DNA of 64,000 bases from Lachnospiraceae bacterium (GCA_017483735.1 JAFUVF010000004.1:3186-67185); one strand, 5' to 3'; shown: positions 2,939-46,665, numbered from the stretch's first letter. Notes: generated by a model from the sequence alone, not told the origin. Made by a program: numbers and translations.

Positions 2939-2968
2939 ATTATAAAACGGTTACCGACCAAAAGTCAA
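2939..2968 (-). promoter_or_regulatory. candidate sigma-70 promoter for the Tad-like operon (TTGACT-18-TATAAT)
   Basis: The minus strand reads TTGACT (2963-2968), an 18-nt spacer, then TATAAT (2939-2944). This lies about 95 nt upstream of the 2841 start. The -35 box overlaps the 3' end of the acetylesterase CDS. Confidence 0.45.
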
Positions 2969-3684
2969 TAACCGTTTTTCGCAAAAACATCATCCTCGGG
3001 AATCTCTGTAAGTATCATATCCTCATAGGGTTTCCCAAGCTCCTTTAGCCCCTCTGCTATCATACCAGCATATGTAAATGCCCCATAATATCTTAAATGC
3101 GTGTTATCCGCCTTCCCCTCCGGATGGGTAAGATACAGCCCCTCCCTAAAGTTCATATACAGCGCCTTACTCTCATCATCTCCAAGCCTTGTAAGCAAAT
3201 CCCTGCTCTTTTTGCACAGGTCTATGACCGGTACGTTTTCTTTTCCGCCGAAATCAAGCTCCGCTTCGACATAGGGCGTGTGGGCGCTTGGCTTTAGCTT
3301 TCCCGTATCATCAAAAAGGCGCCTCTCTATTGGGGTCATTATCACGGGATATGCCGATACTGCTCTGGCAGTATCCGTAAAAAACTTAAGATTATCCCTA
3401 AAGCTTGTCTGCGGATCCGTGTAGCGCAGGGAATCCTCCTTCTTTTCATCATTATGTCCGAACTGTATAAATAGGAAATCCCCCTTGCCGATACCGGCCT
3501 GAACCGGCTTAAATCTGCTCTCGTCTATGAAGCTCTTGGTGCTCCTGCCGTTCTTTGCAAGGTTTATGACCTGATACTCGGGCTTTAAAAATATGGGAAG
3601 CACCTGTCCTATCCCTGTCTGTGGGAATTTCAGATGTACATTGGTCTGAACCGTGGAATCTCCGATATAATATACTTTAGGCAT
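2965..3684 (-). CDS. rhgT: rhamnogalacturonan acetylesterase (SGNH/GDSL hydrolase, CE12-like)
   Basis: 239 aa carrying the SGNH blocks IGDSTVQ (block I), GRSTKSF (II), FGHND (III) and DNTHL (V). The overall pattern matches Bacillus RhgT/YesT. Confidence 0.8.
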   Translation of the reverse strand: MPKVYYIGDSTVQTNVHLKFPQTGIGQVLPIFLKPEYQVINLAKNGRSTKSFIDESRFKPVQAGIGKGDFLFIQFGHNDEKKEDSLRYTDPQTSFRDNLKFFTDTARAVSAYPVIMTPIERRLFDDTGKLKPSAHTPYVEAELDFGGKENVPVIDLCKKSRDLLTRLGDDESKALYMNFREGLYLTHPEGKADNTHLRYYGAFTYAGMIAEGLKELGKPYEDMILTEIPEDDVFAKNGY

Positions 3685-3774: not shown

Positions 3775-4638
3775 TTACTCTTTTACGGCACCTATATTCA
3801 CACCTGTTACGAAATACTTCTGCAGGAACGGATACAGAGCCATGAAAGGAAGCACCGCCACTACGATAGCTGCATAGTACAGGGTATTCTGGGATACCTT
3901 GTATGCAGAGGTAGGCGTATCTCCGTCCATGACGAGGACTCTTAGGATATACTGGAAGTTTACCTGGTCTCTGTCTACGATGTAAATCTGAACAGTTGAG
4001 TAGTCGTTCCACACCGTAACCGCATACATAAGTCCGATGGATGCTAACGCTGCCTTGGAAAGGGGAAGCACTATCTTAAAGAAGATTCCCATAGGGGAGC
4101 AGCCATCTATCTTCGCCGCCTCAAAGAGAGAGCCGGGTATGCCTTCAAAGAAGTTTCTCATAAGCACAAGGTTGTAAACGTTCATACCGTGCTTGACAAC
4201 CAATATCCACATATTGTTAGTCAAATGAAGCTGTCTCATAACCAAGTACTCGGGAATCATGCCTCCGGAGAATATCATGGTAAAGAGAAGGAAGAACGCC
4301 AATGCGTTACGTCCGGGCATCTCAAACTGGCAGAGCACATAACCTCCCAGAGTACTCATAATAAGTCCGAGGAGTGTTCCCAAAACCGTGGTAATTACAG
4401 AGTTAAGGAAGGGTCTGTACAGCTTCTGTGTGCCGAAGATTGTGAGATATCCGGCAGCCGTGGGCTGTGAAGGCCAAAGCTTAAACTGGTATACACCCAC
4501 CGCATTGAAGGAATCCACTATAACCTTCCAGATAGGTATGATGACTATGAGTGCAACAATAACAAATACTATGTAGTTTACAACGTCGAAAACATGAACC
4601 TTTTTCTTGGGCTGTCTGAATTCTATATCTTTTGCCAT
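3775..4638 (-). CDS. carbohydrate ABC transporter permease (LplC/YtcP-like), copy 1
   Basis: 287 aa and multi-TM, with the EAA-type loop FEAAKIDGCSPMGIFFKIVLPL. It is a paralogue of 11510-12373. Confidence 0.9.
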   Translation of the reverse strand: MAKDIEFRQPKKKVHVFDVVNYIVFVIVALIVIIPIWKVIVDSFNAVGVYQFKLWPSQPTAAGYLTIFGTQKLYRPFLNSVITTVLGTLLGLIMSTLGGYVLCQFEMPGRNALAFFLLFTMIFSGGMIPEYLVMRQLHLTNNMWILVVKHGMNVYNLVLMRNFFEGIPGSLFEAAKIDGCSPMGIFFKIVLPLSKAALASIGLMYAVTVWNDYSTVQIYIVDRDQVNFQYILRVLVMDGDTPTSAYKVSQNTLYYAAIVVAVLPFMALYPFLQKYFVTGVNIGAVKE

Positions 4639-4652
4639 TTTTCAAGCCCTCC

Positions 4653-5612
4653 TTATATAATACCGCGTCCGCGGACTTTTTTACTTGCCCAGTTGCAGAC
4701 AAGCACGAGCATACAGCCAACAAGTGACTTGAAGAGACCAACCGCAGTCGTATATCCATAGTTGGGTATTGCGGAAAGGAAGGTCTTTCTGTATACGTAT
4801 GTGGATATAACATCAGATACATCCAACACACGGGTATTGTACATAACGAATACAGACTCGAACATATTGAGCACCTTTGCAAGATTAAGGATAAGTACGA
4901 TAAGTACTGTGTTTGCAAGGGCGGGTACTGTTACATACCATATCTTCTGCATTCTGGTTGCGCCGTCTATGTCGGCCGCCTCATAGAGCTCGGGATTGAT
5001 ACCTGAAAGTGTTGCAAGGAAGATAACTGTTCCCCAACCTGTCTCCTTCCAGATATTTACCAGATAGAACACCGGACGCCACAGTGCAGGCTCATGTAGG
5101 AAGTCAATGCTCTCCGTGATAAGCCCCCATTCCTTTAAGGTCTCATTTATCATACCTGTGGATGATGCGGAGAGGAAAAGGGTAAATATAGCCGCCGTAA
5201 CTGTCCATGACATAAAGTGGGGCAGATAGATGACCGTCTGCAAAGCCTTCTTTGCAAGTAGATTACCCATCTCATTTATAAATACCGATACGATGACAGA
5301 TGTTGCCGTCGTTATTATCAATTTCATTATTGAAAGCTGGAGCGTGTTGAAGAAGGAGCGCCAGAAGTCTGACGAATCCTTGCCGAAGAACATGCTCTGG
5401 AAATGCTTGAAGCCTACAAATTCAATTTTCTTAAGTGTGTAATCATAGAACGAATAGCGTACGCCTAACATAGGCCAATAATAAATTATAAGCACATAGA
5501 TAAGAACCGGCAGGAACATTATATAGTAGCCTCTATGGTTCCATATCCGCGTTCCTAAAGGTTTGTGACGGATAACGGTTCCGTCTTCCGTTGCGAGAAC
5601 TTTTTTACTCAT
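4653..5612 (-). CDS. sugar ABC transporter permease (LplB/YteP-like), copy 1
   Basis: 319 aa with the EAA loop YEAADIDGATRMQKIWYVTVPAL. It is a paralogue of 10533-11495. Confidence 0.9.
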   Translation of the reverse strand: MSKKVLATEDGTVIRHKPLGTRIWNHRGYYIMFLPVLIYVLIIYYWPMLGVRYSFYDYTLKKIEFVGFKHFQSMFFGKDSSDFWRSFFNTLQLSIMKLIITTATSVIVSVFINEMGNLLAKKALQTVIYLPHFMSWTVTAAIFTLFLSASSTGMINETLKEWGLITESIDFLHEPALWRPVFYLVNIWKETGWGTVIFLATLSGINPELYEAADIDGATRMQKIWYVTVPALANTVLIVLILNLAKVLNMFESVFVMYNTRVLDVSDVISTYVYRKTFLSAIPNYGYTTAVGLFKSLVGCMLVLVCNWASKKVRGRGII

Positions 5613-5663
5613 ATGTACACCCTGCCTTTTGATAGTTTTTTTACTAATACCTTTGAAAATTTT

Positions 5664-5693
5664 GTCCCGTCGGGACTCCCGAGGAGGAGTCCC
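5664..5693 (-). promoter_or_regulatory. intercistronic stem-loop between the SBP and permease genes (copy 1)
   Basis: The mRNA strand forms GGGACUCC-UCCUCG-GGAGUCCC (8-bp GC-rich stem) followed by an A/U-rich stretch. An alternative small hairpin (GUCCC/GGGAC) shares one arm with it. Confidence 0.5.
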
Positions 5694-5715
5694 AAACGGA
5701 ACGGAAAATCATAGA

Positions 5716-7374
5716 TTACTGTGCATTGAGCTCGTCAAGTATGGTCTGAGCGGTGTCGCCCCACTTTGCCTGATACTCAGCAATAGCGTCAGCGCCGGTC
5801 TTCTTGCCGGTAACAACCTCGTTCATAAGCTTGGTCTTGTCACTTACGATATCAGAGTTTACCTCGGTAAGAGTATCGGAAGCTGCTGCCTGAGGAGCAT
5901 CTACGCAGTTCTCGGTAAAGAACTTGTTACCCTTCTCAACAAGGGGATCGCTATCAACGAAGCCGTTGGTAAGAGGTGCAATAACAAGGACTGCATCAAG
6001 GTGATTCTTCTTCCAGATGGAGTTAGGATCGTTGGGAGTGGGTCTCAAGTGGAACTGACCATCCTCATACTTGTACTCCTTCTTCTTCTCAGGGTCATCA
6101 GGGTTGGTAACGAACTCCTCAGCCTTGGTAGACCAGTGAACATCCTCAGCACCATAGGTCCAGAGAGTCTGTACCTTGTCGCCGTCAAGCATGGTGTCAA
6201 GAAGTGCATCGAAGATAGCCTGCTCACGGGAATCATCTCCGTCGCCATCATCAGTGATTACCCAAACGGGAGCCTCACGGTTGATGTAGCCGCCCCAGGT
6301 ATCCTTGATCTCCTTGATAGGAGGAAGCTGTACGAGTCTGTCATCGCCGAGCTCGGAATCTACTTCCTGCTTCTCCATGTTGTCGGTAAGAGTTCTGAGC
6401 CATGTACCTGCCCAATAAGTGAACACACCTTCGGAAGTGGTCTGATCGTTGGAGAAGAACTTCTCACGAGCGATCTTTGTGGTAGCTTCCTCAGTATCCT
6501 TATCAATGAGGCCATCCTTGTATGCGGTTGCAAGTCTGTCAAGCGCATCGATGGTAGCCTGCTCCTGGAAACCGTCTACCCAAGTGCCGTCCTTCTGATA
6601 GAAAGAAGGATAAGCACCCTGCCAGAACTCGGGCATGTAGTTGATGTAAGGAGCCTCGTCAAGCTTACCGAAGCCTGCTGCGATAACGCCGGTGGTCTTT
6701 CCGTTGGAGAAAGCCTTGAGCATATTGTAGTAGTCATCATAAGTCTTGATGTCATCGATCTTAAGTCCTGCTGCATCAAGCCAAGACTGCTTTACATAGG
6801 TAACGCATCCGTTTCCGTATGTAGGAGCGAATCCATAAAGCTCTCCGGAGGAGGTCTTCATGTTCTCATTGATTGAAGGAAGAGTGATCCTTGACTGGAA
6901 CTCTGCATTTGCATATGCGTCAGCGAGGTTCCAAAGGATACCGGTTGACTGATACTGTCTGAACATGGTAGCGCTCATAATGAGTGCATCGGGATAGCTT
7001 CCGTCTCCGGGCTGTCCGGTGGTAAGAAGCTGGGATACCTTATCAGAGTATCCTGAGTGCTCAGGCTGATTGATGTGAAGCTTAATGGGATGTCCGATCC
7101 TCTCGGAAACTGCTGCTTCCCACTGCTCAACGAAAGCATCCTGTCTGTTGTCTACGTTAGCGGTTACGGTACCGTCAACTGTGATGTAGAGATCCTCAAG
7201 TACATAAGGCTCTGCCTCAGTAGTTGTGGTGTTTCCACCATCGGTGGAAGTGGTGGTGCTTCCGCTGTTGCCGGAATCAGTAGATCCACCGTTATCGGTA
7301 GAGGTACCGCCGCAGGCTGCAAGAGATGCAACCATAGCAGAAGCGAGAAGTAATGCTAATACTTTCTTCTTCAT
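5716..7374 (-). CDS. extracellular solute-binding lipoprotein (LplA/YtcQ-type, family 1), copy 1
   Basis: 552 aa with lipoprotein signal MKKKVLALLLASAMVASLAACGG and a Ser/Thr/Gly-rich linker. It is the first gene of the operon and a paralogue of 8757-10436. Confidence 0.9.
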   Translation of the reverse strand: MKKKVLALLLASAMVASLAACGGTSTDNGGSTDSGNSGSTTTSTDGGNTTTTEAEPYVLEDLYITVDGTVTANVDNRQDAFVEQWEAAVSERIGHPIKLHINQPEHSGYSDKVSQLLTTGQPGDGSYPDALIMSATMFRQYQSTGILWNLADAYANAEFQSRITLPSINENMKTSSGELYGFAPTYGNGCVTYVKQSWLDAAGLKIDDIKTYDDYYNMLKAFSNGKTTGVIAAGFGKLDEAPYINYMPEFWQGAYPSFYQKDGTWVDGFQEQATIDALDRLATAYKDGLIDKDTEEATTKIAREKFFSNDQTTSEGVFTYWAGTWLRTLTDNMEKQEVDSELGDDRLVQLPPIKEIKDTWGGYINREAPVWVITDDGDGDDSREQAIFDALLDTMLDGDKVQTLWTYGAEDVHWSTKAEEFVTNPDDPEKKKEYKYEDGQFHLRPTPNDPNSIWKKNHLDAVLVIAPLTNGFVDSDPLVEKGNKFFTENCVDAPQAAASDTLTEVNSDIVSDKTKLMNEVVTGKKTGADAIAEYQAKWGDTAQTILDELNAQ

Positions 7375-7412
7375 TTCTTTCCTCCCTGTTTAATGAATGA
7401 AATGGTATAATT
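7226..7412. repeat. IR-L: high-identity core of the inverted repeat (5' UTR/SD plus first ~50 codons of SBP1)
   Basis: The reverse complement matches 8717-8908 with about 5 substitutions, a 1-nt indel and a 3-nt indel by hand alignment. This includes a perfect run of about 96 nt from AACAGGGAGGAAAGAA through codon 27. Confidence 0.85.
7403..7411 (+). promoter_or_regulatory. inward-facing extended -10 element TGgTATAAT inside IR-L
   Basis: The plus strand reads TGGTATAAT, pointing into the recombinase cassette and antisense to the recombinase 3' end. It is the mirror copy of the element at 8718-8726. Confidence 0.4.
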
Positions 7413-7437
7413 TATGCAGGAACAATTTCCCACACAA
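7410..7437 (-). promoter_or_regulatory. candidate promoter for ABC operon 1 (TTGTGT-16-TGcATAAAT)
   Basis: On the minus strand the -35 is TTGTGT (7432-7437), followed by a 16-nt spacer ending in TGc, then the -10 ATAAAT (7410-7415). The -10 straddles the boundary between unique spacer DNA and IR-L. Confidence 0.45.
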
Positions 7438-7560
7438 TGCAATCATATCATTATTGTGTCGTTTAGGCAAGAAATTTTTGTCAAAAAGCAATAAAAAACA
7501 CTTGAAATTTACGCCGTTTTTTCGTTATTTTTTTGACAAATCCCTGACTGTCCAGAGCCA

Positions 7561-8622
7561 TTATGGAGCCAAGCCGTATTCATCATTAAGCTTTTGCGCC
7601 AACTCCCTCTGTTTTCCGGGATATAAATGCGAATATGTGTCCAAAGTGGTCTCTATCTTTTCGTGTCCCAGCCTCTCCGCAATGAGAAGCGGCGTCACGC
7701 CCATTTCTATGAGAAGTGATGCGTGGGAATGCCTGAGGTCATGCACCCTTATCCTATGAAGCTTTGCCATGTCAGCATGCCGTTTCAGCGAATATTCTAT
7801 ATGAAAGCGGCTTACTCCAAAAATTCTTCCGTCATCGGGGCAACCCTTTCTTATTATATATTCTGCAACAGCATAACACAAGAAGTCCGGCAGAGTAACC
7901 GCCCTCACGCCTTTTTTTGACTTTGGCGGAGTCGTCACATCCTGTCCCTTTATGCGTTGATATGATTTTGTTATGCTTATACTCCCCTCCTCGGTATTGA
8001 TATCATTCGGTGTCAGAGCCAGAAGCTCTCCCACTCTCATTCCTGTCCAGTACAGCAATAGGAAGATAAGCCTGTCGGCATAATCCTCATCCGAAGAAAG
8101 GGTCTTTATAAAGACTTCAAATTCTTCCCTCGTCCAAAAGTTCAGCTCCTTCGTCTTGTTATTTCCTATGCTTCCTGCCCTCCTGCACGGATTGTCATTT
8201 AGTCCGTAATACTTTTCGGCATACGAGAAAAGTGCCTTAAGCTGGCTGTTTAACTGCTTTAAATACGTGGGCGAATACTCCCTTTTAAGCATTTCGTTCT
8301 GCCAGCCTCTGATGTCCGGCGGTTTGATATCGCACAGGTACATGTTTTTAAAGTACGGTATTATGTGCTTTTCGAACAAATACCGCTTGCCCCTGACTGT
8401 ATTCACACGAAGCCGTACATCCATATCGTCAAGATACAGTCTTGCAAACTCATCAAACCTTACACTCATATATTTCTGCATGGATTCCTTGAAATTCTTT
8501 TCCCATTCAAGAGCATCCCGCTTACGCATAAATCCCCTTTTGTTTTTCTTGCGCCGAACCCCTTGCCAGTCCACATAATAGAACTGGCAGCGCCATTTCT
8601 TTCCGTCCTTGTTCGCAGACAT
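7561..8622 (-). CDS. site-specific tyrosine recombinase (phage integrase family)
   Basis: 353 aa with an N-terminal arm-type DNA-binding region (KKWRCQFYYVDWQG). The catalytic signature is present: WTGMRVGE (Arg), HDLRHSHAS (His-x-x-Arg) and LGHEKIETTLDTYSHLY (His ... Tyr). An AGGAGG sits 8 nt upstream of the ATG. Confidence 0.9.
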   Translation of the reverse strand: MSANKDGKKWRCQFYYVDWQGVRRKKNKRGFMRKRDALEWEKNFKESMQKYMSVRFDEFARLYLDDMDVRLRVNTVRGKRYLFEKHIIPYFKNMYLCDIKPPDIRGWQNEMLKREYSPTYLKQLNSQLKALFSYAEKYYGLNDNPCRRAGSIGNNKTKELNFWTREEFEVFIKTLSSDEDYADRLIFLLLYWTGMRVGELLALTPNDINTEEGSISITKSYQRIKGQDVTTPPKSKKGVRAVTLPDFLCYAVAEYIIRKGCPDDGRIFGVSRFHIEYSLKRHADMAKLHRIRVHDLRHSHASLLIEMGVTPLLIAERLGHEKIETTLDTYSHLYPGKQRELAQKLNDEYGLAP

Positions 8623-8716
8623 AATTTCCTCCTATCAAAAAATGAGAGCCAAAATGGAGCCACGGAAAAAATTGTCATAATTTAATCCGTCGATTCCCTT
8701 ATGAACCCTCGCCCCT

Positions 8717-8908
8717 AATTATACCATTTCAATTCATTATAACAGGGAGGAAAGAAATGAAGAAGAAAGTATTAGCATTACTTCTCGCTTCTGCTATGGT
8801 TGCATCTCTTGCAGCCTGCGGCGGTACCTCTACCGACAACGGTGGATCTACCGATTCCGGCAACAGCGGAAGCACCACCACCACTTCCACCGACGGTGGA
8901 AACACCAC
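8717..8908. repeat. IR-R: high-identity core of the inverted repeat (5' UTR/SD plus first ~50 codons of SBP2)
   Basis: Partner of 7226-7412; see that entry. Confidence 0.85.
8718..8726 (-). promoter_or_regulatory. extended -10 promoter TGgTATAAT inside IR-R, oriented to drive the recombinase
   Basis: The minus strand reads TGGTATAAT, about 95 nt upstream of the recombinase ATG. I found no other good promoter between it and the gene. Confidence 0.45.
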
Positions 8909-10436
8909 TACCGCAGAGCCTTACGTACTTGATGAGCTCTACGTAATCGTTGACGGTACTCTTACTGCTACCGTTGACAGCGGTCAGGATGCTTTTATTG
9001 AGCAGTGGGAGCAGCTTGTAGGCGAAAAGATCGGACATCCCATCAAGCTTACCATCGAGCAGCCCGAGCACTCCGGCTATCAGGCAACAGTATCCCAGAT
9101 ACTGTCCACCAGACAGCAGAGCGATGCGGATTATCCCGATGCAATGATAATGAGCGCATCAATGTTCAGAGAGTATCAGACCACCGGTATTCTTTGGGAT
9201 ATGGCAAACGCTTATGACAACGCTGATTTCCATGCAAATGTCCGTTTCCAGAACAACGAGTTCAACAAGGACTCCCAGGGACGTATGTATGGTATCGCAC
9301 CTACCAGAGGAAACGGATGCGTTACCTATGTAAAGCAGACCTGGCTTGACGCAGTAGGCATGAAGCTTGATGACATCAAGACCTTCGATGACTACTACAA
9401 GATGCTCAAGGCATTTGCCGAGAACGACCCCGACGGCAACGGAAAGGGCGGCACCTACGGCGCTATCGCTGCCGGCTATGCAAATATCGGCGAGGCTCCT
9501 TACATCAACTATCTTCCTGAGTTCTGGCAGGGCGCATATCCCGCAATCCTCCAGAGAGACGGCGTATGGGTTGACGGATTCCAGGAGCAGGCTACCATCG
9601 ATGCTCTTACCAGACTCCATCAGGCTTATGTTGACGGTGTAATCGATCCCGATACCGAGGAAGCTGGCACCAAGCAGGCTCGTGAGAAGTTCTGGAATGC
9701 AGATCAGAGTGTTGCATCCGGAACCTTCGCATACTGGGCAGGAACCTGGTATAACAATATTACCAACAACATGATCAAGCAGGGCATTATGGCAGAGGGA
9801 GACCAGCAGAAGGATCTTGTAATGCTTCCTCCAATCAAGGAAATTCAGGACACCTGGGGCGGACTTATCGACAGAGAGGCTCCCGTTTGGGTAATCACTG
9901 ATGACGGCGACGGCGATGATTCCCGTGAGCAGGCTATCTTTGATGCTCTCATCGAGACCATGCTCGACGGCGACAAGGTAGAGACCCTCTGGGTATACGG
10001 TGCAGAGGATGTTCACTGGTCTGTAAAGGCTGAGGATTTCGAGACTGTTACCGGAGATGACAAGAAGGTTACCGAGTATCATTATGAGGACGGACAGTTC
10101 CACTTAAAGCAGTCCCCTAATGACCCTAACTCTATCTGGTCCAAGAACCACCTTGATCCCATCCTTGTAATCGTACCCCTTACCAACGGTTATGACGATC
10201 CCAACCCCGTTGTACAGGCAGGTAACGACTTCTTCAACAAGTATGCGATTGCAGCTCCTGTTTCACCCGCAAGTGAGACTCTTACCGAGATTCAGTCCGA
10301 GCTTACCGATGCTAAGAAGGTAGCTATCAATGCGGCCGTTACCGGCGAGAAGACTCCTGAGGAGGCTGTTGCAGAGTATGTTGCAGCTTGGGGAGATACC
10401 GTTCAGGGAATTCTTGACGAGTTAAACGCTCAGTAA
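8757..10436 (+). CDS. extracellular solute-binding lipoprotein (LplA/YtcQ-type), copy 2
   Basis: 559 aa. The signal peptide and linker match copy 1 (one extra Thr). The mature domain is roughly two-thirds identical to copy 1 by eye. Confidence 0.9.
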   Translation: MKKKVLALLLASAMVASLAACGGTSTDNGGSTDSGNSGSTTTTSTDGGNTTTAEPYVLDELYVIVDGTLTATVDSGQDAFIEQWEQLVGEKIGHPIKLTIEQPEHSGYQATVSQILSTRQQSDADYPDAMIMSASMFREYQTTGILWDMANAYDNADFHANVRFQNNEFNKDSQGRMYGIAPTRGNGCVTYVKQTWLDAVGMKLDDIKTFDDYYKMLKAFAENDPDGNGKGGTYGAIAAGYANIGEAPYINYLPEFWQGAYPAILQRDGVWVDGFQEQATIDALTRLHQAYVDGVIDPDTEEAGTKQAREKFWNADQSVASGTFAYWAGTWYNNITNNMIKQGIMAEGDQQKDLVMLPPIKEIQDTWGGLIDREAPVWVITDDGDGDDSREQAIFDALIETMLDGDKVETLWVYGAEDVHWSVKAEDFETVTGDDKKVTEYHYEDGQFHLKQSPNDPNSIWSKNHLDPILVIVPLTNGYDDPNPVVQAGNDFFNKYAIAAPVSPASETLTEIQSELTDAKKVAINAAVTGEKTPEEAVAEYVAAWGDTVQGILDELNAQ

Positions 10437-10472
10437 AAGTAAACCATTTATAAAGACATTTATGTTCTGTCA

Positions 10473-10500
10473 GATATCCCGTCCTTCGGGGCGGGATATC
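10473..10500 (+). promoter_or_regulatory. intercistronic stem-loop between the SBP and permease genes (copy 2)
   Basis: GATATCCCG...CGGGATATC forms a 9-bp outer stem with a GC-rich interior, followed by TTTAAAAAAAA. It occupies the same position as the copy-1 hairpin but has an unrelated sequence. Confidence 0.5.
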
Positions 10501-10532
10501 TTTAAAAAAAACGAAAGAGATGGGTAAAGCTT

Positions 10533-11495
10533 ATGGCAAAAAACAAATTTGAAACAACCTCAAACGGAGTGCCTATAAGACACAAGCCATTAGGAATGCG
10601 TATCTGGAACAACAGAGGGTTTTATCTCATGTTTCTTCCCGTGTTTATCTTCGTTCTAATCATCAACTATTGGCCTATGTTGGGTATCCGCTATTCATTC
10701 TATGACTACACAGTAAAGAAAATGGAATGGGTGGGGCTTAAACATTTCCAGGATATGTTCTCCGGCAAAAACTCTTCTGATTTCTGGAGATCATTTTTTA
10801 ACACACTTGAACTTTCGATAATGAAATTATTGATAACGACTGCCGCATCGGTAATCGTATCCGTATTTATAAATGAAATGGGCAATCTTCTTGCCAAAAA
10901 GACATTGCAGACAGTTATCTACCTGCCTCACTTCCTTTCATGGGCGGTTACGGCAGCTATATTTACTCTGTTCCTCTCAGCTTCATCTACAGGCTTTGTA
11001 AACGAGACCTTAAAGAGCTGGGGAGTACTGGAACGAAGTATAGACTTCCTGCATCTGCCAACGTGGTGGCGGCCTATCTTCTATCTCATAAACATATGGA
11101 AAGAGACAGGATGGGGAACGGTTATATTCCTTGCCACATTATCCGGTATCAATCCGGAGCTCTACGAGGCGGCGGATATAGACGGTGCAACCAGAATGCA
11201 GAAGATATGGTATGTAACAGTACCCGCCCTTGCAAACACGGTAATTATAGTGCTTATACTGAATCTTGCAAAGGTTCTCAATATGTTCGAGTCGGTATTC
11301 GTACTTTACAACACCAGAGTTTATGATGTGTCGGACGTTATCTCCACATACATCTACAGAAAGACCTTTATGGCTGCGGTTCCCAATTACGGCTTTACCA
11401 CCGCTGTAGGTCTGTTTAAATCTATTGTGGGCGCATTCCTTGTACTCGTCTGCAACTGGGCAAGCAAAAAAATCCGCGGACGCGGAATTATATAA
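10533..11495 (+). CDS. sugar ABC transporter permease (LplB/YteP-like), copy 2
   Basis: 320 aa, very similar to 4653-5612 along its whole length. Confidence 0.9.
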   Translation: MAKNKFETTSNGVPIRHKPLGMRIWNNRGFYLMFLPVFIFVLIINYWPMLGIRYSFYDYTVKKMEWVGLKHFQDMFSGKNSSDFWRSFFNTLELSIMKLLITTAASVIVSVFINEMGNLLAKKTLQTVIYLPHFLSWAVTAAIFTLFLSASSTGFVNETLKSWGVLERSIDFLHLPTWWRPIFYLINIWKETGWGTVIFLATLSGINPELYEAADIDGATRMQKIWYVTVPALANTVIIVLILNLAKVLNMFESVFVLYNTRVYDVSDVISTYIYRKTFMAAVPNYGFTTAVGLFKSIVGAFLVLVCNWASKKIRGRGII

Positions 11496-11509
11496 GGAGG
11501 GCTTGAAAA

Positions 11510-12373
11510 ATGGCAAAGGATATAGAATTCAGAAAGCCCAAGACAAAGATACATCTTTTCGATGTTATAAACTATATAGTGTTTGTTATTGTGGCGCTTA
11601 TCGTCCTTATTCCACTGTGGAAGATTGTGGTGGATTCCTTTAATGCAGTGGGTGTATACCAGTTCAGATTCTGGCCCAACCGCCCCACGGTAGCTGGATA
11701 CCTTACGATTTTCTCCACAAATAAGCTGTACAGACCCCTTCTCAATTCCTTTATCACTACGATATTCGGAACCTTGCTGGGGCTTGTGCTCTCCACTCTC
11801 GGAGGCTATGTACTAACTCAGGAGGAAATGCCCTTCAGAAACGGGTTGTCCTATTTTCTCCTGTTTACCATGATATTCTCCGGAGGACTTATCCCCGAGT
11901 ATCTGGTAATGAGACAGCTCCACCTTGTAAACAATATGTGGATATTGGTTGTTAAGCACGGTATGAACGTTTACAACCTCGTGCTTATGAGAAACTTCTT
12001 TGAAGGCATTCCCGGCTCCCTCTTTGAGGCGGCGAAGATAGATGGCTGCTCCCCTATGGGAATCTTCTTTAAGATAGTGCTTCCCCTTTCCAAGGCAGCA
12101 TTAGCGTCCATCGGACTTATGTTTGCGGTTACCGTATGGAACGATTATTCAACGGTTCAGATCTATATAAACAACCGTGATCAGGTAAACTTCCAGTACA
12201 TTCTTCGTGTAATGGTCATGGACGGAGATACGCCGACGACACAGTATGCGGTATCACAGAATACCCTGTACTATGCGGCGATAGTCGTAGCCATCCTGCC
12301 ATTCATGGTGCTGTACCCGTTCTTGCAGAAGTATTTCGTACAGGGCGTAAATGTAGGTGCAGTAAAGGAATAA
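11510..12373 (+). CDS. carbohydrate ABC transporter permease (LplC/YtcP-like), copy 2
   Basis: 287 aa. It shares long identical protein runs with 3775-4638, for example NNMWILVVKHGMNVYNLVLMRNFFEGIPGSLFEAAKIDGCSPMGIFFKIVLPLSKAALASIGLM. Confidence 0.9.
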   Translation: MAKDIEFRKPKTKIHLFDVINYIVFVIVALIVLIPLWKIVVDSFNAVGVYQFRFWPNRPTVAGYLTIFSTNKLYRPLLNSFITTIFGTLLGLVLSTLGGYVLTQEEMPFRNGLSYFLLFTMIFSGGLIPEYLVMRQLHLVNNMWILVVKHGMNVYNLVLMRNFFEGIPGSLFEAAKIDGCSPMGIFFKIVLPLSKAALASIGLMFAVTVWNDYSTVQIYINNRDQVNFQYILRVMVMDGDTPTTQYAVSQNTLYYAAIVVAILPFMVLYPFLQKYFVQGVNVGAVKE

Positions 12374-12384
12374 TTATCAAAGCT

Positions 12385-12414
12385 AAAGGCTGCGGAACCT
12401 CCGCAGCCTTTTTT
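12385..12414. terminator. bidirectional rho-independent terminator between convergent genes
   Basis: The sequence is AAAGGCTGCGG-AACCT-CCGCAGCCTTTTTT, with an A-run on one side and a T-run on the other. It lies between the permease stop and the ispD stop. Confidence 0.75.
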
Positions 12415-13141
12415 ATATCCTTTTTTCGATTATCCTCTGCGCTATTCCCACATCCTCCGGCGTCGTTATCTTGATATTCTCATAGCTTCCGAGGGTTAGC
12501 TTTACCTTTTTATCCGTATACAGCTCGCATAACGAGGCATCATCGGTTATATTTATGCCCTCGGAAATGAGCTTATCCGCCTCATCCTCGAATTTAAAGT
12601 AGGCATCCCTTATAAGCTTATATTCAAAAACCTGCGGTGTCTGTATGTTCCAAACCCTGCTTCTGTCGGGTGTCTCCTTCACAAAGCCCTCTTCGTCCGC
12701 TATCTTTACAGTATCCTTGGAGGGCACCGCTGCGACACAGGCTCCACACTCGCGCACATCATTGTACAGCCTCTCTAACATCTCCTCATCCACAAAGGGT
12801 CTTGCCCCGTCCTGAACAAAGATATATCCATCACCTTCGATAAGTCCTTCATCCTCTATATAATGAAGCGCATTTGCTACGGAAAAATACCTCTCGCTCC
12901 CTCCGCAAGCAATACCGCAGACCTTCTTAAAGCTATGCGCCTCCACAATCTCCCTGCGTACCCTTTCGACATCCTGCGCTCCCGCTACAAGCACGATGCC
13001 TTCTATAATATTCGAGGCTTCAAATGCATTCAGGGCATACCATATGAGAGGATGCCCCGATATTTCCATATATTGCTTGGGTACAGCGCCGCCCATGCGG
13101 CTGCCGCTCCCCCCTGCGAGGATTATACCTATATTTTTCAT
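12413..13141 (-). CDS. ispD: 2-C-methyl-D-erythritol 4-phosphate cytidylyltransferase
   Basis: 242 aa with the N-terminal motif ILAGGSGSRMGGAVPKQY and IspD-like length and pattern. Confidence 0.85.
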   Translation of the reverse strand: MKNIGIILAGGSGSRMGGAVPKQYMEISGHPLIWYALNAFEASNIIEGIVLVAGAQDVERVRREIVEAHSFKKVCGIACGGSERYFSVANALHYIEDEGLIEGDGYIFVQDGARPFVDEEMLERLYNDVRECGACVAAVPSKDTVKIADEEGFVKETPDRSRVWNIQTPQVFEYKLIRDAYFKFEDEADKLISEGINITDDASLCELYTDKKVKLTLGSYENIKITTPEDVGIAQRIIEKRI

Positions 13142-13142
13142 A

Positions 13143-14174
13143 TTATCCCCCTAATTTAAGGTTCGGCACCGCATTCAGCGTGTAGTCATCCCTCACTCCC
13201 TTTATGAATTCGTAGTATCCTGCGCAGGCTATCATCGCACCATTGTCCGTGCAGAGTATGGGAGCTGGTCTGTAAAAGCTTATGCCCTGCTTTTCGCACT
13301 CCGTTTCAAATGCTTCTCTGAGCGCAAAGTTGGACGCAACGCCGCCGGCAATGGCGAATTTGTCATATCCGTATTCCTTCACAGCCCTTATCGAATGCTC
13401 CACAAGTACGTCGCATACCGCTTTCTGGAAGGAAGCCGCCACATCGGCGGTATTGACCTCCTCTCCCTTCATATTACAGCCGTTTATGTAGTTGAGCACA
13501 GCGCTCTTTAAGCCACTGAAGGAAAAATCATAATCGTTCCCTTCAACCCTGGCTCTGGGGAAGTCTATGGCATATGGATTCCCTTCCCTTGCAAGCTTAT
13601 CTATCTTCGGACCTCCGGGGTATCCCAGTCCTATAGCCCTTGCCACCTTGTCAAAGGCTTCTCCTGCAGCGTCATCCCTCGTGCGCCCTATTACCTCATA
13701 TTCTCCGTAATCCTTCACAACCACCAGATGTGAATGTCCTCCGGATGCCACAAGGCATACAAAGGGTGGCTTAAGCTGCTTATTCTCGATATAATTTGCG
13801 CTTATATGCCCTTCAATATGATGTACTCCCACAAGTGGTAGCCCCGCAGCGAAGCTCATAGCCTTGGCTTCCGCCACTCCAACAAGAAGCGGTCCCACAA
13901 GCCCCGGCCCGTAGGTAACGGCGATGGCATCCATATCCTTAAGCTCCATACACGCCGAAGCAAGCGCTTCCTTAATTACCTGATTTATGCGCTCTATGTG
14001 CTTCCTCGACGCTATCTCCGGTACCACGCCGCCGTACAGGGTGTGTATCGGTACCTGTGATGATATAATATTAGAAAGCAGCTCTCTGCCGTTTTTCACA
14101 ACAGACGCTGCCGTTTCATCACAGGATGTTTCTATTCCCAATATGTATATGTCCTTTTCGGTGCTGACATTCAT
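13143..14174 (-). CDS. tsaD: tRNA N6-adenosine threonylcarbamoyltransferase
   Basis: 343 aa with Kae1/Gcp/TsaD hallmarks ([26 protein letters not shown]). Confidence 0.95.
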
Positions 14175-37141: not shown

Positions 37142-37170
37142 TTTTAATGCGTGCTATTCTTGTATCATCA
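37142..37170 (+). promoter_or_regulatory. sigma-70 promoter for the sugar ABC/GH32/GH36 operon (TTGACA-17-TATTCT)
   Basis: TTGACA (37142-37147) is followed by a 17-nt spacer and TATTCT (37165-37170), about 90 nt upstream of the SBP start. Confidence 0.5.
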
Positions 37171-37261
37171 AAACGTTCCATACGTTACTGATTGCAAAAA
37201 ACATCCGGTCAGACACAAGAGGAAACAGAAGGTCAAACCTAGCAAAATGAAGGAAAGAAAA

Positions 37262-38566
37262 ATGATTAAGATGAAAAAGTTCCTTGCACTGGCGCTGAGC
37301 GCCGCAATGACAGCCGGCATACTCGCAGGCTGCGGCTCCGATGGAAGCACAAACGGCGGTTCTACCGGCGGAAGCACTTCCGGAAACGGCGCAACAATTA
37401 CCATACTCAATTCAAAGATGGAGATTCAGGAGCAGCTTGAAAAGATGGCTGAGTCCTACGGAAAGTCAAAGGGAGTCAATGTTGAGGTTTACTACTCCAG
37501 CGACACAATCGCAGCACACCTCTCCACCAGATATGCTTCCAACGAACCCTACACCATTTCAATGGTTGATGCAAAGGATGTATACTCTCTCGCAAAGGAG
37601 CACGCAGTTGACCTCTCCGGCGAGGATTGGGTAAAGGATACCACCGAGGCAATCTCAATAGACGGCAAGGTTTACGGCTTCCCCGTATGTGTTGAGGCAA
37701 GAGGAATCATCTACAATGCCGATGCCATCAAGGCGATCACGGGAAGCGACTTTGATCCTGCAAGCGTTAAGACACTTGACGATTTCAACAAGCTCCTCTC
37801 AGATTTAAAGGCAGGCGGCATGGCGGCTCCCACCGGTATAATGAAGGAGGACTGGTCCCTTGCAGCACACTTCCTTGCAGAGGTTTATGAGCAGCAGGCT
37901 GACCCCGATGCATTCATAAAGGGACTTCACGACGGCACAACCCATATGGCTGATGATGCAATCTTCAACTCCATGATGGACACCTTCGATGCATTAAAGG
38001 CAAACAACTACGCAGAGGCAAGCGCAATCTCCGCAGAGCGTGAGGTTACCGAGCAGAAGCTTGCGGAAGGCGAACTCGCATTTATGTTTGGCGGCAACTG
38101 GGACTGGTCCGTAATCAATCAGTATGACTACTCAGATAATATGGGAATCATGCCTGTACCTCAGAACGGCTCCACTGACGCAAACACCAAGCTTGTAGGC
38201 GGCGGCTCCAAGTACTTCTTCATTGATTCCTCAAGCAACACCTCCGACGAGCAGGTTCAGGCGGCAAAGGATTTCTTAAACTGGATGGTATATGATTCCG
38301 AAGGACAGAGCTTCCTTGTAAACGAGTGTGCATTAGTTCCCGCATTCTCAAATATTACCCTCGCAGTTTCAGACCCTCTCGGCGCATCCGTAAAGACCTA
38401 CGCCGACAAGGGAGCACTCATTGGAAACTACAACTATCTTCCCGATGACCACTACTCAAAGCTCGGCGCTGCATTCCAGGAGTATCTTGCAAACAAGACC
38501 GACAGAGCAGGCTTTGGCGCAGCTATTGACAGCTATTGGCAGGCAGCAACTCTCTCTGAGCACTAA
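37262..38566 (+). CDS. sugar ABC transporter substrate-binding lipoprotein (CUT1)
   Basis: About 434 aa from MIKMKKFLALALSAAMTAGILAGCGS (lipobox). The long N-terminal extension in the ORF track lacks an RBS. Confidence 0.85.
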   Translation: MIKMKKFLALALSAAMTAGILAGCGSDGSTNGGSTGGSTSGNGATITILNSKMEIQEQLEKMAESYGKSKGVNVEVYYSSDTIAAHLSTRYASNEPYTISMVDAKDVYSLAKEHAVDLSGEDWVKDTTEAISIDGKVYGFPVCVEARGIIYNADAIKAITGSDFDPASVKTLDDFNKLLSDLKAGGMAAPTGIMKEDWSLAAHFLAEVYEQQADPDAFIKGLHDGTTHMADDAIFNSMMDTFDALKANNYAEASAISAEREVTEQKLAEGELAFMFGGNWDWSVINQYDYSDNMGIMPVPQNGSTDANTKLVGGGSKYFFIDSSSNTSDEQVQAAKDFLNWMVYDSEGQSFLVNECALVPAFSNITLAVSDPLGASVKTYADKGALIGNYNYLPDDHYSKLGAAFQEYLANKTDRAGFGAAIDSYWQAATLSEH

Positions 38567-38580
38567 TCCGATTTAAATAC

Positions 38581-38608
38581 AGGGGCTGTAAAAATGCAGC
38601 CCCTTTTT
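38581..38608 (+). terminator. intercistronic attenuating terminator-like hairpin after the SBP gene
   Basis: AGGGGCTG-N9-CAGCCCCT is followed by TTTTT. Confidence 0.55.
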
Positions 38609-38636
38609 AAAAATAAAAAAAGAAAGGAAGAAAGCT

Positions 38637-39515
38637 ATGCAGAGAAACAAGATGTCATACAAGGTAAGTCAGTTTCTTATGTTCGCAGGACCGGCAGGGC
38701 TTTTGTTCGTCGGAACCGTCATAATACCCTTCCTGTACGGACTGTATCTTACCTTTACAAGCTGGGATGGAATATCCCGTACAAAGCCCTTTGTAGGCTT
38801 TGAAAACTATGCGTCCACCTTTGCCGATACCGCATATTGGCAGGCAATCGGACGCACCCTTATCTATTCGATTTTTTCCGTAATACTTATCAACATTGTG
38901 GCATTTGCCCTTGCATATCTTGTTACAAGCGGTGTTAAGGGACAGAATTTCTTCCGTGCAGGCTTCTTTATCCCCAACCTTATAGGCGGCATCGTTTTGG
39001 GTTATGTCTGGAAGTTTGTGTTTAACAGAGCTTTCGTTGCGGTTGCAGAGAGTCTGGGGCAGAGGAATGCGGCATCCCTCCTCTCCACCACAAACGGCGC
39101 AATGTTCTGTCTCATACTCGTATCGGTATGGCAGTATGCAGGATATATGATGCTCATATATGTTGCGGGCTTTATGAGCGTATCCGAGTCCCTTAAGGAA
39201 GCGGCTATGATAGACGGCTGCACGCCTGCGCAGGCAATGCAGAACGTGACCATACCTCTTATGCGCTCCAGCTTCGTACAGTGCATATTCTTAAGCATCA
39301 CACGCTGCTTTATGGTATATGATGTGAACCTCTCCCTCACAAAGGGCGAGCCCTTCAATTCATCCGTAATGGCGGCAATGCATGTGTTCAATCAGGCGTT
39401 TACTTACAAAAACTACGGAACCGGTCAGGCGGAGGCTCTGATACTCTTCGTTATATGCGCAATCGTCGGAGTAACTCAGGTCTACATCGGCAAGAAAGGG
39501 GAGGTGGCTGCATAA
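38637..39515 (+). CDS. sugar ABC transporter permease
   Basis: 292 aa MalF-type permease with the EAA loop KEAAMIDGCTPAQAMQNVTIPL. Confidence 0.9.
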   Translation: MQRNKMSYKVSQFLMFAGPAGLLFVGTVIIPFLYGLYLTFTSWDGISRTKPFVGFENYASTFADTAYWQAIGRTLIYSIFSVILINIVAFALAYLVTSGVKGQNFFRAGFFIPNLIGGIVLGYVWKFVFNRAFVAVAESLGQRNAASLLSTTNGAMFCLILVSVWQYAGYMMLIYVAGFMSVSESLKEAAMIDGCTPAQAMQNVTIPLMRSSFVQCIFLSITRCFMVYDVNLSLTKGEPFNSSVMAAMHVFNQAFTYKNYGTGQAEALILFVICAIVGVTQVYIGKKGEVAA

Positions 39516-40375
39516 TGAGCGATTCTGAAAGAGCTTTGAGAAAAAAGAAAATATCACACTTTTTTATGCTCCTTTTACTTGTCATCCTCTTCTTTTTGTT
39601 TATCTCCCCCTTCCTTTTGGTGGTTATAAACGTATTCAAGACTAAGGCTGACATTACGTCAAATCCTCTGGGGCTCATCGGCAAGCATGGCTTTACCACC
39701 AAGAACTTCCCCGAGGCAATGAGAAAGATGGATTTCTTCAAGGTATTCGGAAATTCACTGATAATTACCGTATGCGCCACAATCCTTACCATTATCTTCT
39801 CCGCAATGGCGGGCTTTGTAATGGTCAGAAACAAGTGGGTTGCCTGCAATGCTCTCTTCTCACTTATGATAGCATCCATGGTTATACCCTTCCAGGTGCT
39901 TATGGTTCCCCTGGTATCCGTATACGGCGGAATGTTTGGTGTCCTGAACCACAGGCTCACGCTGATACTTCTGCATGTGGGCTTCTCGGTGTCAATGGCT
40001 ACCTTTATGTTCCACGGCGCAATACATACAAACATCCCTCTTGAGCTGGAGGAGGCGGCATATATAGACGGCTGCACAAGATGGCAGACCTTCTGGAAGA
40101 TAGTATTTCCTCTCCTTACCCCCACGATTGCCACTGTTGCGATAATCGATGCGATGGCATTCTGGAATGACTATCTGCTTCCCAGCCTTGTGCTGCAGAA
40201 GAAGGATCTTTATACCATACCCATCGCAACCCAGAGCTTCTACGGAACCTATTCCACGGATATCGGACTCGTGATGGCTGCCCTGCTTCTGGCAATGCTG
40301 CCCATACTCGTGCTGTATATCTTCCTGCAGAAGTTTATAGTAAAGGGAGTAACCTCGGGAGCTGTAAAAGGTTAA
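39515..40375 (+). CDS. sugar ABC transporter permease
   Basis: About 286 aa from MSDSERAL (ATG overlaps the upstream stop as TAATG). The EAA loop is EEAAYIDGCTRWQTFWKIVFPL. Confidence 0.9.
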   Translation: MSDSERALRKKKISHFFMLLLLVILFFLFISPFLLVVINVFKTKADITSNPLGLIGKHGFTTKNFPEAMRKMDFFKVFGNSLIITVCATILTIIFSAMAGFVMVRNKWVACNALFSLMIASMVIPFQVLMVPLVSVYGGMFGVLNHRLTLILLHVGFSVSMATFMFHGAIHTNIPLELEEAAYIDGCTRWQTFWKIVFPLLTPTIATVAIIDAMAFWNDYLLPSLVLQKKDLYTIPIATQSFYGTYSTDIGLVMAALLLAMLPILVLYIFLQKFIVKGVTSGAVKG

Positions 40376-40393
40376 GAAAGGAAACACAGGACT

Positions 40394-41668
40394 ATGGAAA
40401 TTCAGGTGAGCGGCAGGTATCTTGCGGTACCGGTTTGGACAAACAGAGAATGCTGGGACAGATATGAGCTTACGGTAAAGGGCTTAAACTCTTCCCTATT
40501 CTATACCTTCAAGCTGCCCGCAGAGAGCGGGGATAAGGATGCACCCGACTACTACACCTACCTTCCCATGCTCGACTGTGAGGGTAATCCCGTTACAGGA
40601 AGGCTTGACCTTGACTGTGATGCACCCTATCCGGTAAAAGACAGGCTTTTCTTTACGGATACCCCGGCATTTGAGCATGAGCCGGACGCGCTTCATTATC
40701 ACGCTCCCTACGGCTCCCTGAACGACCCCAACGGACTTGTGTATTATGACGGACTTTGGCATATGTACCATCAGCACAATCCCTTTGACAATGTCTGGGG
40801 CAATATGAGCTGGGGGCATTCCGTGTCAAAGGATCTCATTCATTTTTCTTTTGCCGGGGATGTGCTCTTCCCCGACAACGAGGGTGTGATGTTCTCCGGA
40901 TGCGGGCTTGTAAACGAAAGGGGCGCTTTTTCTCTCCCTGAGAATGCCCTTCTCTTCTTCTATACACTCGCATCGGAGGAGCCCGCCCCGGGGGAGGCAG
41001 AGCCTCACAGGTTTTTCACACAGCGCCTTGCCTATTCCCTCGATAACGGTTATACTCTTATCAAATATCCCGAATGGAAGCTTGATACATATGAATCTGA
41101 GAACCGGGACCCGAAAATTTTCTGGCATAATGAGACCTCTGCATATATTATGTCACTGTTTCTCACAAAGAACCGCTTTGCAATCTTCCGTTCAGAGGAT
41201 TTAAAAAACTGGACAAAGACCTGCGAGGTCGACTATCCACCCATGTGGGAGTGTCCCGACTTGCTTAGGCTGTCCGACGAAAAATGGGCATTTATGAGTG
41301 CCGACGGCTTCTATTTCATAGGGAGCTTCGACGGCTTCAGCTTCAAACCCGAAACCGAAATGAAAAAGCTCTATGCAAACGATATGCCCTATGCGGCACA
41401 GAGCTATTCCAATACAGACGGACGCATTATAAGCGTCGCATGGCTTCGCACCGGGAATCACGGGGAGAACTGGCACGGCATGATGAGCGTGCCGAGAGAG
41501 CTTTCCCTGGGCTGTGATCCCGAAGGCTATTATATCCGCCAAAGCTTCGTACCGGAGCTTTCCGGCTTTATAAAAGAGAATAAAGACAGCTTTATCATAG
41601 AGGATGAATATATCCGTGAGACACTTGATAAGGACGGACATATGCTTCTTACAGAGCAGCTGTTTTAA
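40394..41668 (+). CDS. GH32 beta-fructofuranosidase / sucrose(-6-phosphate) hydrolase
   Basis: 424 aa with GH32 motifs LNDPNGL, WGHSVS, RDPKIFW and WECPDL. Confidence 0.85.
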   Translation: MEIQVSGRYLAVPVWTNRECWDRYELTVKGLNSSLFYTFKLPAESGDKDAPDYYTYLPMLDCEGNPVTGRLDLDCDAPYPVKDRLFFTDTPAFEHEPDALHYHAPYGSLNDPNGLVYYDGLWHMYHQHNPFDNVWGNMSWGHSVSKDLIHFSFAGDVLFPDNEGVMFSGCGLVNERGAFSLPENALLFFYTLASEEPAPGEAEPHRFFTQRLAYSLDNGYTLIKYPEWKLDTYESENRDPKIFWHNETSAYIMSLFLTKNRFAIFRSEDLKNWTKTCEVDYPPMWECPDLLRLSDEKWAFMSADGFYFIGSFDGFSFKPETEMKKLYANDMPYAAQSYSNTDGRIISVAWLRTGNHGENWHGMMSVPRELSLGCDPEGYYIRQSFVPELSGFIKENKDSFIIEDEYIRETLDKDGHMLLTEQLF

Positions 41669-41694
41669 AATAAATACTGCAGCAGGATGAAAAA

Positions 41695-42672: not shown

Positions 42673-42690
42673 TGAACAAAAGAGGTAATT

Positions 42691-46484: not shown

Positions 46485-46503
46485 CCTAGATACCTCCTTT
46501 ATG

Positions 46504-46665
46504 TAGTGACAATTTGCGTTAGCAAATTGCATCGAGCCATTCATAATGTTACATAACCTAAATTATGGCTCGTTTCCTCCTTAATATAGTGACAATTTAC
46601 GAAGTAAATTGCATCGAGCCATTCATTATGTTACATAACCTAAATTATGGCTCGTTTCCTCCTTA
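46504..46665 (-). repeat. tandem duplication (2 x ~80 nt, period 83) of a two-hairpin element, each copy starting with AAGGAGG on the coding strand
   Basis: The copies at 46504-46583 and 46587-46665 are nearly identical. Each contains GAGCCAT...ATGGCTC and an 8-bp stem: CAATTTGC/GCAAATTG in one copy and CAATTTAC/GTAAATTG in the other. The difference is a compensatory double change. Confidence 0.85.

Follow-up and report, generated by a model that had tools for sequence, protein, structure and literature searches.

We analysed a window of 64,000 nucleotides (nt), the whole stretch GCA_017483735.1 JAFUVF010000004.1:3186-67185 from Lachnospiraceae bacterium, a rumen Butyrivibrio-like organism, in which a gene for a tyrosine integrase lies between two paralogous ATP-binding cassette (ABC) importer operons that are inverted and stand head to head. 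The left operon, here called L-type, occupies 3775-7374 on the minus strand and encodes a lipoprotein substrate-binding protein (SBP), SBP_L (5716-7374), followed by permease 1 (4653-5612) and permease 2 (3775-4638). The right, or R-type, operon occupies 8757-12373 on the plus strand and encodes SBP_R (8757-10436), permease 1 (10533-11495) and permease 2 (11510-12373). Both were delimited with the open reading frame (ORF) map and Pfam, and the sole ORF between them, at 7561-8622 on the minus strand, encodes the integrase, of 353 amino acids. A preliminary description of the same DNA had reported two mirror-image SBP-permease-permease operons with a tyrosine recombinase between them, and every one of these ORFs was found where it had been placed. 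That description had also estimated the SBPs to be about two-thirds identical and the permeases 85-90% identical; the global protein identities measured between the L- and R-type copies are 68.0% (SBPs), 83.1% (permease 1) and 85.7% (permease 2).

Each operon has the composition of a CUT1-type importer, that is, a lipoprotein SBP together with two MalF/MalG-type permeases. The BPD_transp_1 domain was detected in four of four permeases, and the Pfam search matched no model for the SBPs. These possess a lipoprotein signal peptide with the lipobox LAAC, are weakly similar to oligosaccharide-binding proteins of the AlgQ1/AlgQ2 type in the PDB (E ~6e-8), and have homologues that carry the name 'aldouronate transport system substrate-binding protein' in several sources.

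Where the two operons face each other, their 5' ends form an inverted repeat, set in a background of 65-75% identity, with arms of 141 nt that differ by 2 mismatches and are perfect over 96 nt (7295-7390 and 8741-8836). The left arm (7250-7390) takes in the ribosome-binding site (RBS), start codon, signal peptide, lipobox and Ser/Thr/Gly linker of SBP_L, and the right arm (8741-8881) covers the 5' end of SBP_R. Looser similarity continues inward to 7413 on the left and to 8716 on the right, in keeping with the inverted repeat that the preliminary description had implied around 7413-8716. The repeat also spans the last ~40 nt of the 5' untranslated region (5'UTR), and the RBS context within it is R-type.

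Comparison of the two operons along their length revealed a mosaic, with identity of 99% at 7283-7382 against 53-76% in most other 100-nt windows. The 5' tract as a whole (7259-7413 and 8716-8873) is 96.2% identical between the operons, and such values of 96-99% between paralogues compare with at most 86% to orthologues. A second near-identical tract lies in permease 2 (4016-4219 on the minus strand, with its partner at 11929-12132), where 204 nt are 96.1% identical and include an 80-nt perfect run, whereas orthologues from five species are just 80-82% identical there; we therefore conclude that the paralogues have undergone concerted evolution by homologous gene conversion in this genome. Shorter tracts of 93-96% identity between the operons were found as well. 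Paralogue tracts that greatly exceed orthologue similarity, set in a diverged background, are the pattern of ectopic gene conversion. As the second tract shows homologous exchange between the operons, the 5' repeat would need no dedicated recombinase, and it is the longest among several gene-conversion tracts. In length, a perfect repeat of 96 nt should suffice for RecA-type recombination. Smaller conversion-like tracts were also seen at 4897-4982, 4600-4700 and 6206-6278. Single-nucleotide polymorphisms (SNPs) between strains in permease 2 were considered as fresh paralogue conversions and set aside, as 4 of 10 match the paralogue, which is indistinguishable from chance.

The candidate invertible segment bounded by the repeat arms (7391-8740; 1350 bp) holds a promoter region, the integrase gene and two putative arm-type motifs of that integrase, which are taken up below. 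In an alignment (A1) we compared both inner flanks of the window with the sequences upstream of L- and R-type operons in five other species, and this revealed a single promoter common to all L- and R-type orthologues, made up of TTGCCA or TTGCAA, 17 nt and a TG-extended -10. The window has a single copy of this conserved promoter, on the minus strand of the left inner flank (7470-7442), where the promoter scan and the alignment agree on TTGCCT, 17 nt and TG-n-TATGAT, facing SBP_L. Alignment A1 found no counterpart of it in the right inner flank (8663-8740), in which the only promoter-like element facing SBP_R is TGTCATAAT (8673-8681, plus strand), an extended -10 with no usable -35 that was read from the sequence and falls below the pass level of the promoter scan.

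The origin of the left flank bears on which operon this promoter once served. All of that flank (7391-7553) is homologous to sequence upstream of the R-type SBP gene in the locus L102. There, and in L096, ispD immediately precedes the R-type operon, giving the order ispD, promoter, SBP, in an orientation opposite to that seen in the window, where the R-type operon is reversed relative to ispD and parted from its ancestral promoter. Given an R-type left flank, an R-type RBS within the repeat and the gene order in L096 and L102, we infer that the window wires the R-type promoter to the L-type operon, which it would now drive, and that inverting 7391-8740 would restore the ancestral pairing. In silico, the target of the promoter would thus be set by the orientation of the segment, as it is in an inverton.

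Other promoter-like and operator-like sequences were observed in the segment. Each inner extension of the repeat has a perfect extended -10, TGGTATAAT, at 7403-7411 on the plus strand and at 8718-8726 on the minus strand, both facing into the segment and both with no recognisable -35. The right copy could be the promoter of the integrase, and transcription from the left copy would run antisense through the operon promoter and the integrase. The near-palindrome TTTGWCAAA occurs twice upstream of the conserved promoter (7477-7485 and 7532-7540), and TTTGTCAAA-like sequences occur in the homologous region of L102; the pair is possibly an operator, with two matches in the window being not beyond chance.

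To see this locus in other assemblies, we used exact-protein look-ups, which yielded contigs built from several samples with at least two assemblers. Ten of them are long and belong to the same strain, with 99.3-99.99% identity across 12-16 kb, and all ten have the orientation of the window, and the arrangement is not an assembly artefact, being reproduced in these ten by different assemblers. One further contig, L103 (2459 nt; sample SAMN15829990), carries the exact flipped junction, such that its first 2270 nt correspond to window 5413-7390 followed by the reverse complement of 8740-8449. It departs from the predicted flipped sequence by two differences that no other assembly shares, at 6153 and 8697 on opposite sides of the junction, and this argues for a distinct strain and not for a mis-path through the reads of the dominant strain. 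The crossover falls within the 96-nt perfect stretch, and SBP_L is unchanged by the flip. Past integrase codon 58 the contig (2271-2459) consists of unrelated DNA with the 3' end of a gene on the opposite strand, the product of which has a C-terminus of ...RIDQILVSGDITVKCYRIIDDQLKKLHFESDHLPVCADITF before the stop (the product end was also read as ...SDHLPVCADITF) and which we presume, from its motifs only, to be endonuclease/exonuclease/phosphatase (EEP)-like. This foreign end may be a true rearrangement by which the integrase was truncated, or else the product of a chimeric scaffold. We are fairly confident that the flipped state in L103 is real. The orientation switching proposed earlier has one natural contig in its favour, with ten of eleven contigs in the same orientation to set against it.

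Further sequence collections were also surveyed. Two contigs of the Logan k=31 set, L002 and L084, stop 30 nt into each repeat arm, which we considered as evidence on orientation and discarded as uninformative because such breaks are expected of any repeat. A scan of JGI metagenomes with a 28-mer from the perfect repeat gave 0 matches, and in protein searches the JGI data held neither this strain nor R-type SBPs.

Evaluating the integrase itself, we found the Pfam domains Arm-DNA-bind_4, Phage_int_SAM_3 and Phage_integrase, and, in the window copy, the catalytic residues R196, a K234-237 hairpin, H294-x-x-R297, H320 and Y330, which bears out the intact recombinase signature reported before. 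Its 90% identity cluster has 7 members, all from this species, all at this locus and all from one ruminant-gut study. No relative of 57-92% identity was present among 5.8 billion proteins, and the next relatives are 47-57% identical (80 loci, >100 proteins). A search for orthologous integrases in one genome per GTDB species gave a best match of 55% identity, and the 80 closest loci (L003-L082) were examined. As 77 of these 80 have NikA-like, AAA_25 or Mob_Pre genes next to the integrase, the relatives are therefore integrative mobilizable elements (IMEs). Neither inverted repeats flanking the integrase nor a related SBP or permease nearby were found at any of the 80.

This IME family is widespread in Lachnospiraceae, with elements of 7-12 kb inserted at the 3' end and stop codon of guaA at the core GAGTTYGARTAA; one example is L008 (5470-5565 and 12725-12860). 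Of the 80 IME loci, 58 have the motif TGGCTC-N5-TGGCTC on the strand that encodes the integrase, and its distance from the guaA core is fixed: 58-59 nt inward of the left end in 49 loci and 104-105 nt inward of the right end in 10. The same motif, which reads GAGCCA-N5-GAGCCA on the plus strand of the window, occurs exactly twice in the 64 kb against 0.29 expected. One copy, GAGCCATTATGGAGCCA (7555-7571, plus strand), overlaps the integrase stop codon and the other, GAGCCAAAATGGAGCCA (8646-8662, plus strand), lies 23 nt upstream of the integrase start; the two are direct repeats, and their orientation to the integrase is that of the IMEs. We interpret the motif as tandem arm-type sites that the N-terminal arm-binding domain would recognise. 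Within the family, the locus L064 (3037-3245) was observed to have three TGGCTC-N5-TGGCTC copies, the right flank being the same for copies 1 and 3, which suggests two family IMEs in tandem at one site.

Other parts of such an element are missing from the window. No mobilization gene (NikA-like, AAA_25 or Mob_Pre) was found in the 64 kb by tblastn, no excisionase or phage gene appears in its ORF lists, and the guaA core has no match in the window at up to 3 mismatches in 15, the integrase not being at guaA. A 10/15 core-like match 56 nt from the upstream arm motif was examined as an exchange site and rejected, as it is marginal (p ~0.03) and the L103 crossover lies outside it. The window thus has a clade integrase with its arm domain and the end motifs of the family, and has neither mobilization genes nor an insertion at guaA; with the arm motifs kept and the rest gone, the integrase is probably what is left of an IME reduced to 1.1 kb, that is, to the integrase and two arm-type motifs. 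The preliminary description was right that no mobile genes accompany the recombinase, none being found in 64 kb, and its further view that the locus does not resemble the edge of an ordinary prophage or ICE is at odds with the IME-integrase relatives and the family arm motifs.

The integrase gene also varies among near-identical strains. Across 7000-9100 the only difference among assemblies is a change from T7 to T8 at 7912-7918 (A7 to A8 in the coding sense, codons K235-K237), and the T8 allele frameshifts the integrase and splits its catalytic domain. The frameshifted allele is the commoner among assemblies (L083, L085 with three similar contigs, L086, L087 and the Logan contig L084, which stems from four samples), and the intact allele is found in the window, L001, L088 and L002. 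L103 presents a third allele, with the integrase truncated at codon 58. Three alleles in near-identical strains, all but L103 in one orientation, fit relaxed selection better than an essential switch enzyme, and the gene appears to be in decay or at any rate dispensable; slippage at the run may nevertheless be reversible. A dead recombinase had been named in advance as an outcome that would speak against switching; the window copy keeps its catalytic residues, and most other assemblies carry a frameshift in the gene.

The reading that we favour, and to which we would give about an even chance, is homologous inversion or conversion between the repeats with the orphan IME integrase as a bystander. 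Under this reading, two paralogous CUT1-type importers standing head to head would exchange sequence by homologous gene conversion, and this conversion would have made their 5' ends (R-type 5'UTR plus signal peptide) near-identical and so produced the 141-nt inverted repeat. The segment between the repeats would hold the only copy of the conserved promoter, together with an orphan integrase left from a guaA-type IME. Reciprocal recombination within the repeat would then invert the segment and move the conserved promoter between the operons. In the common state the promoter would drive the L-type operon, with the R-type operon having at most a weak extended -10 promoter, and in the flipped state it would drive the R-type operon, which is the ancestral pairing. 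From the sequence evidence as a whole, the flip is probably real, probably changes expression and is probably catalysed by host homologous recombination and not by the integrase; the finding that the integrase is broken in most strains was counted toward host recombination as the catalyst. The architecture is real, as is its potential for a promoter swap, which has probably been realised at least once in nature.

Several observations pull the other way. By its residues, the integrase of the window strain appears catalytically intact, and a position exactly between the repeats is a priori unlikely to arise by chance. Random decay would have had to produce two independent deletions that stop precisely at the arm motifs on both sides of the integrase, an odd coincidence that hints at retained function. 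In addition, ten of the eleven junction-spanning contigs share one orientation, such that flipping would be rare or strongly selected, and the flipped state comes from one short contig, the last 189 nt of which are unrelated DNA that may mark a chimeric scaffold.

The last of these points would be accommodated by a static locus, a possible if rather unlikely account in which the integrase is no more than an inert remnant and the repeat no more than a conversion tract, L103 is a mis-join across the repeat and the operons use whatever promoters face them. Ten long contigs from several samples and assemblers in one orientation agree with such a locus, gene conversion alone would explain the near-identical tracts, and L103 is short, ends in unrelated DNA and has at least one suspect junction. 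It is the private SNPs of L103 at 6153 and 8697 that speak against a mis-join, since they flank the flipped junction and point to a distinct strain. Moreover, compared with L096 and L102, an R-type promoter next to an L-type gene already requires one past exchange across the repeat.

Unlikely, in our judgement, is the alternative in which a domesticated IME integrase itself inverts the promoter segment through its arm-type sites and core sites in the repeats, and so toggles the importers, with the A7/A8 run perhaps switching the recombinase. The layout of the locus would suit this alternative, as the integrase gene has the placement of cis-encoded invertases, within the segment that the repeats bound, it and both arm motifs are kept compactly with the other IME genes gone, and its catalytic residues are intact in the window. 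The spacing would suit it too, with the upstream arm motif and the inner repeat edge 55-78 nt apart, compared with 58-59 nt from arm to core in the IMEs, and so would the sequence 56 nt from the motif that matches the IME core at 10/15 positions (p ~0.03) and the occurrence of a flipped contig among strains that are ~99.9% identical. What tells against it is that none of the 80 closest relatives sits between inverted repeats, all being IME integrases, and that the gap at 57-92% identity in 5.8 billion proteins marks a recent one-off acquisition and not a conserved system. The frameshifted allele is the commoner one and the integrase of the flipped strain is truncated; no guaA-like core is found at up to 3 mismatches, the L103 crossover lies outside the core-like sequence and no directionality factor is encoded nearby. 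The arm motifs, as direct repeats, have the geometry of excision, and a single orientation prevails in 10 of 11 contigs. The recombinase-driven inversion put forward in the preliminary description therefore keeps its architecture and loses ground on the relatives, on the repeats and on the state of the gene.

A version of this idea that we regard as improbable holds that a recently captured and stripped IME integrase was co-opted to invert a promoter cassette between two importers that differ mostly in the binding protein, as bet-hedging on the oligosaccharide at hand, with the recombinase toggled by slippage of A7/A8. That the integrase and arm motifs are a still-mobile 1.1-kb mini-element, inserted by chance and unrelated to the repeats, is hardly credible, since the direct-repeat arm motifs do stand immediately either side of a full-length integrase ORF but there are no recognisable core sites or target duplication beyond them, no second copy or empty site was found with the 7 cluster members all at this locus, and the integrase is frameshifted in most strains.

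Set against known systems, the locus resembles several and coincides with none. Invertible promoter switches (invertons) with a nearby tyrosine recombinase include E. coli fimS with FimB-FimE, the RecV switches of Clostridioides difficile and the Mpi/PS promoters of Bacteroides, and such invertons typically use 9-30 bp intergenic sites. As in these, a promoter segment is bounded by inverted repeats, a tyrosine recombinase gene lies in cis, and orientation would choose the transcribed gene. The window differs in that its repeats are long (96-141 nt) and lie inside coding sequence, in that the segment would alternate two operons and not turn one operon on and off, and in that its recombinase is an arm-domain IME integrase, often broken and outside the known invertase families. 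With hsdS shufflons and other gene-altering programmed inversions it has in common inverted paralogous coding segments, long repeats within genes and a tyrosine recombinase gene that lies between or next to the segments; unlike in hsdS, the exchanged parts are identical and the coding sequence does not change. The hsdS-like shufflon to which the locus had been likened is for this reason not borne out, as a crossover in identical 5' ends makes no new protein and only the promoter would move.

A closer parallel for exchange between paralogues is found at tufA and tufB of Salmonella, inverted paralogues between which RecA-dependent gene conversion and inversion occur. There, too, mosaic tracts are closer within the genome than to orthologues, and an occasional reciprocal exchange inverts the DNA between the copies; here, by contrast, the inverted DNA is only 1.35 kb and bears a promoter, so that an exchange would have a direct regulatory effect. 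The guaA IMEs of Firmicutes share with the window the domain architecture of the integrase (47-57% identical) and the TGGCTC-N5-TGGCTC motif in the same orientation to it, and differ in that the window element lacks relaxase, NikA and AAA_25, is not at guaA, has no guaA-like core and is reduced to 1.1 kb. The importers themselves are like CUT1 importers of the LplABC and YtcQ-YteP-YtcP type in having a large lipoprotein SBP, two BPD_transp_1 permeases and no ATPase in the operon, as well as in having orthologues beside uxaC, uxaA, lacI, a GDSL esterase and GH43; they differ from that type in that the SBPs match no Pfam SBP model and that two diverged copies lie head to head.

The surroundings of the two operons are for the most part ordinary. 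A GDSL esterase gene (2965-3684) lies downstream of the L-type operon, and the right operon is flanked by the same housekeeping genes as at L096 and L102 (tsaE, tsaB, rimI, tsaD and ispD). A 39-nt spacer (12374-12412) separates R-type permease 2 from the converging ispD and contains a hairpin, GGCTGCGGA...TCCGCAGCC, with an A-run and a T-run at its sides, which is likely a bidirectional terminator common to the R-type operon and ispD. A further observation concerns the ispD/tsaD region at 12590-13778, where ~90 of the 116 differences between L085 and the window are concentrated in 1.2 kb, and this cluster suggests that DNA of a diverged strain was imported by recombination. Elsewhere the window has the look of ordinary chromosome, with secA and a sucrose/raffinose utilisation cluster. 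This separate sugar cluster (37151-44886) encodes an SBP_bac_8 SBP, two permeases, GH32, a LacI regulator and a GH36 alpha-galactosidase, and its substrates are probably raffinose or sucrose-type oligosaccharides; a HerA-like helicase gene follows at 44889-46544. No transfer RNA (tRNA) gene was found in the window, and neither RNA genes nor riboswitches were detected when the locus and three IME loci were scanned for Rfam families and tRNAs.

Orthologous operons in other species place the importers in a metabolic context. L-type orthologues, 71-81% identical, are common in Butyrivibrio, in the arrangement LacI-UxaC-UxaA followed by SBP-permease-permease-GDSL-GH43, and at these loci they are single operons that lack both a partner operon and an integrase. 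Orthologues of the R-type, 72-74% identical, are rare and also single, and the head-to-head pair with an integrase between was found in this species only. That orthologous operons elsewhere are single, with neither partner nor integrase, counts against the recombinase-driven reading of the preliminary description. One locus, L106 (1-7581), was observed to have an SBP 72% identical to the R-type protein in a LacI-UxaC-UxaA context that is otherwise L-type, and the split into L- and R-types is therefore not cleanly matched to genomic location. By analogy with these neighbourhoods, the substrates are probably pectic or uronate-containing oligosaccharides, with which the uxaC, uxaA, GDSL esterase and GH43 neighbours fit. 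The earlier guess at a pectic substrate was thus a reasonable one, given that orthologous operons adjoin LacI-UxaC-UxaA, a GDSL esterase and GH43; the GDSL esterase has a weak match to PaeY that is below the family cut-off.

ABC substrate-binding proteins are depleted among the gene families near predicted programmed inversions (ratios 0.36-0.41; Milman et al. 2023, PMC9881135), and a true switch at this locus would therefore be an unusual target. Should neither flipping nor co-option hold, what we describe would be an ordinary paralogue pair with an orphan integrase between its operons. If the integrase were the catalyst, the locus would capture a rare early stage in the domestication of an integrase into an invertase, and co-option, if true, would make it a first case of phase-variable choice of ABC importer in a Gram-positive gut or rumen bacterium. 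If instead the flip is real and changes expression, a promoter switch would have arisen by accident from gene conversion between paralogues and the remnant of a mobile element, and a rumen fibre degrader could in this way alternate two importers with different binding proteins.

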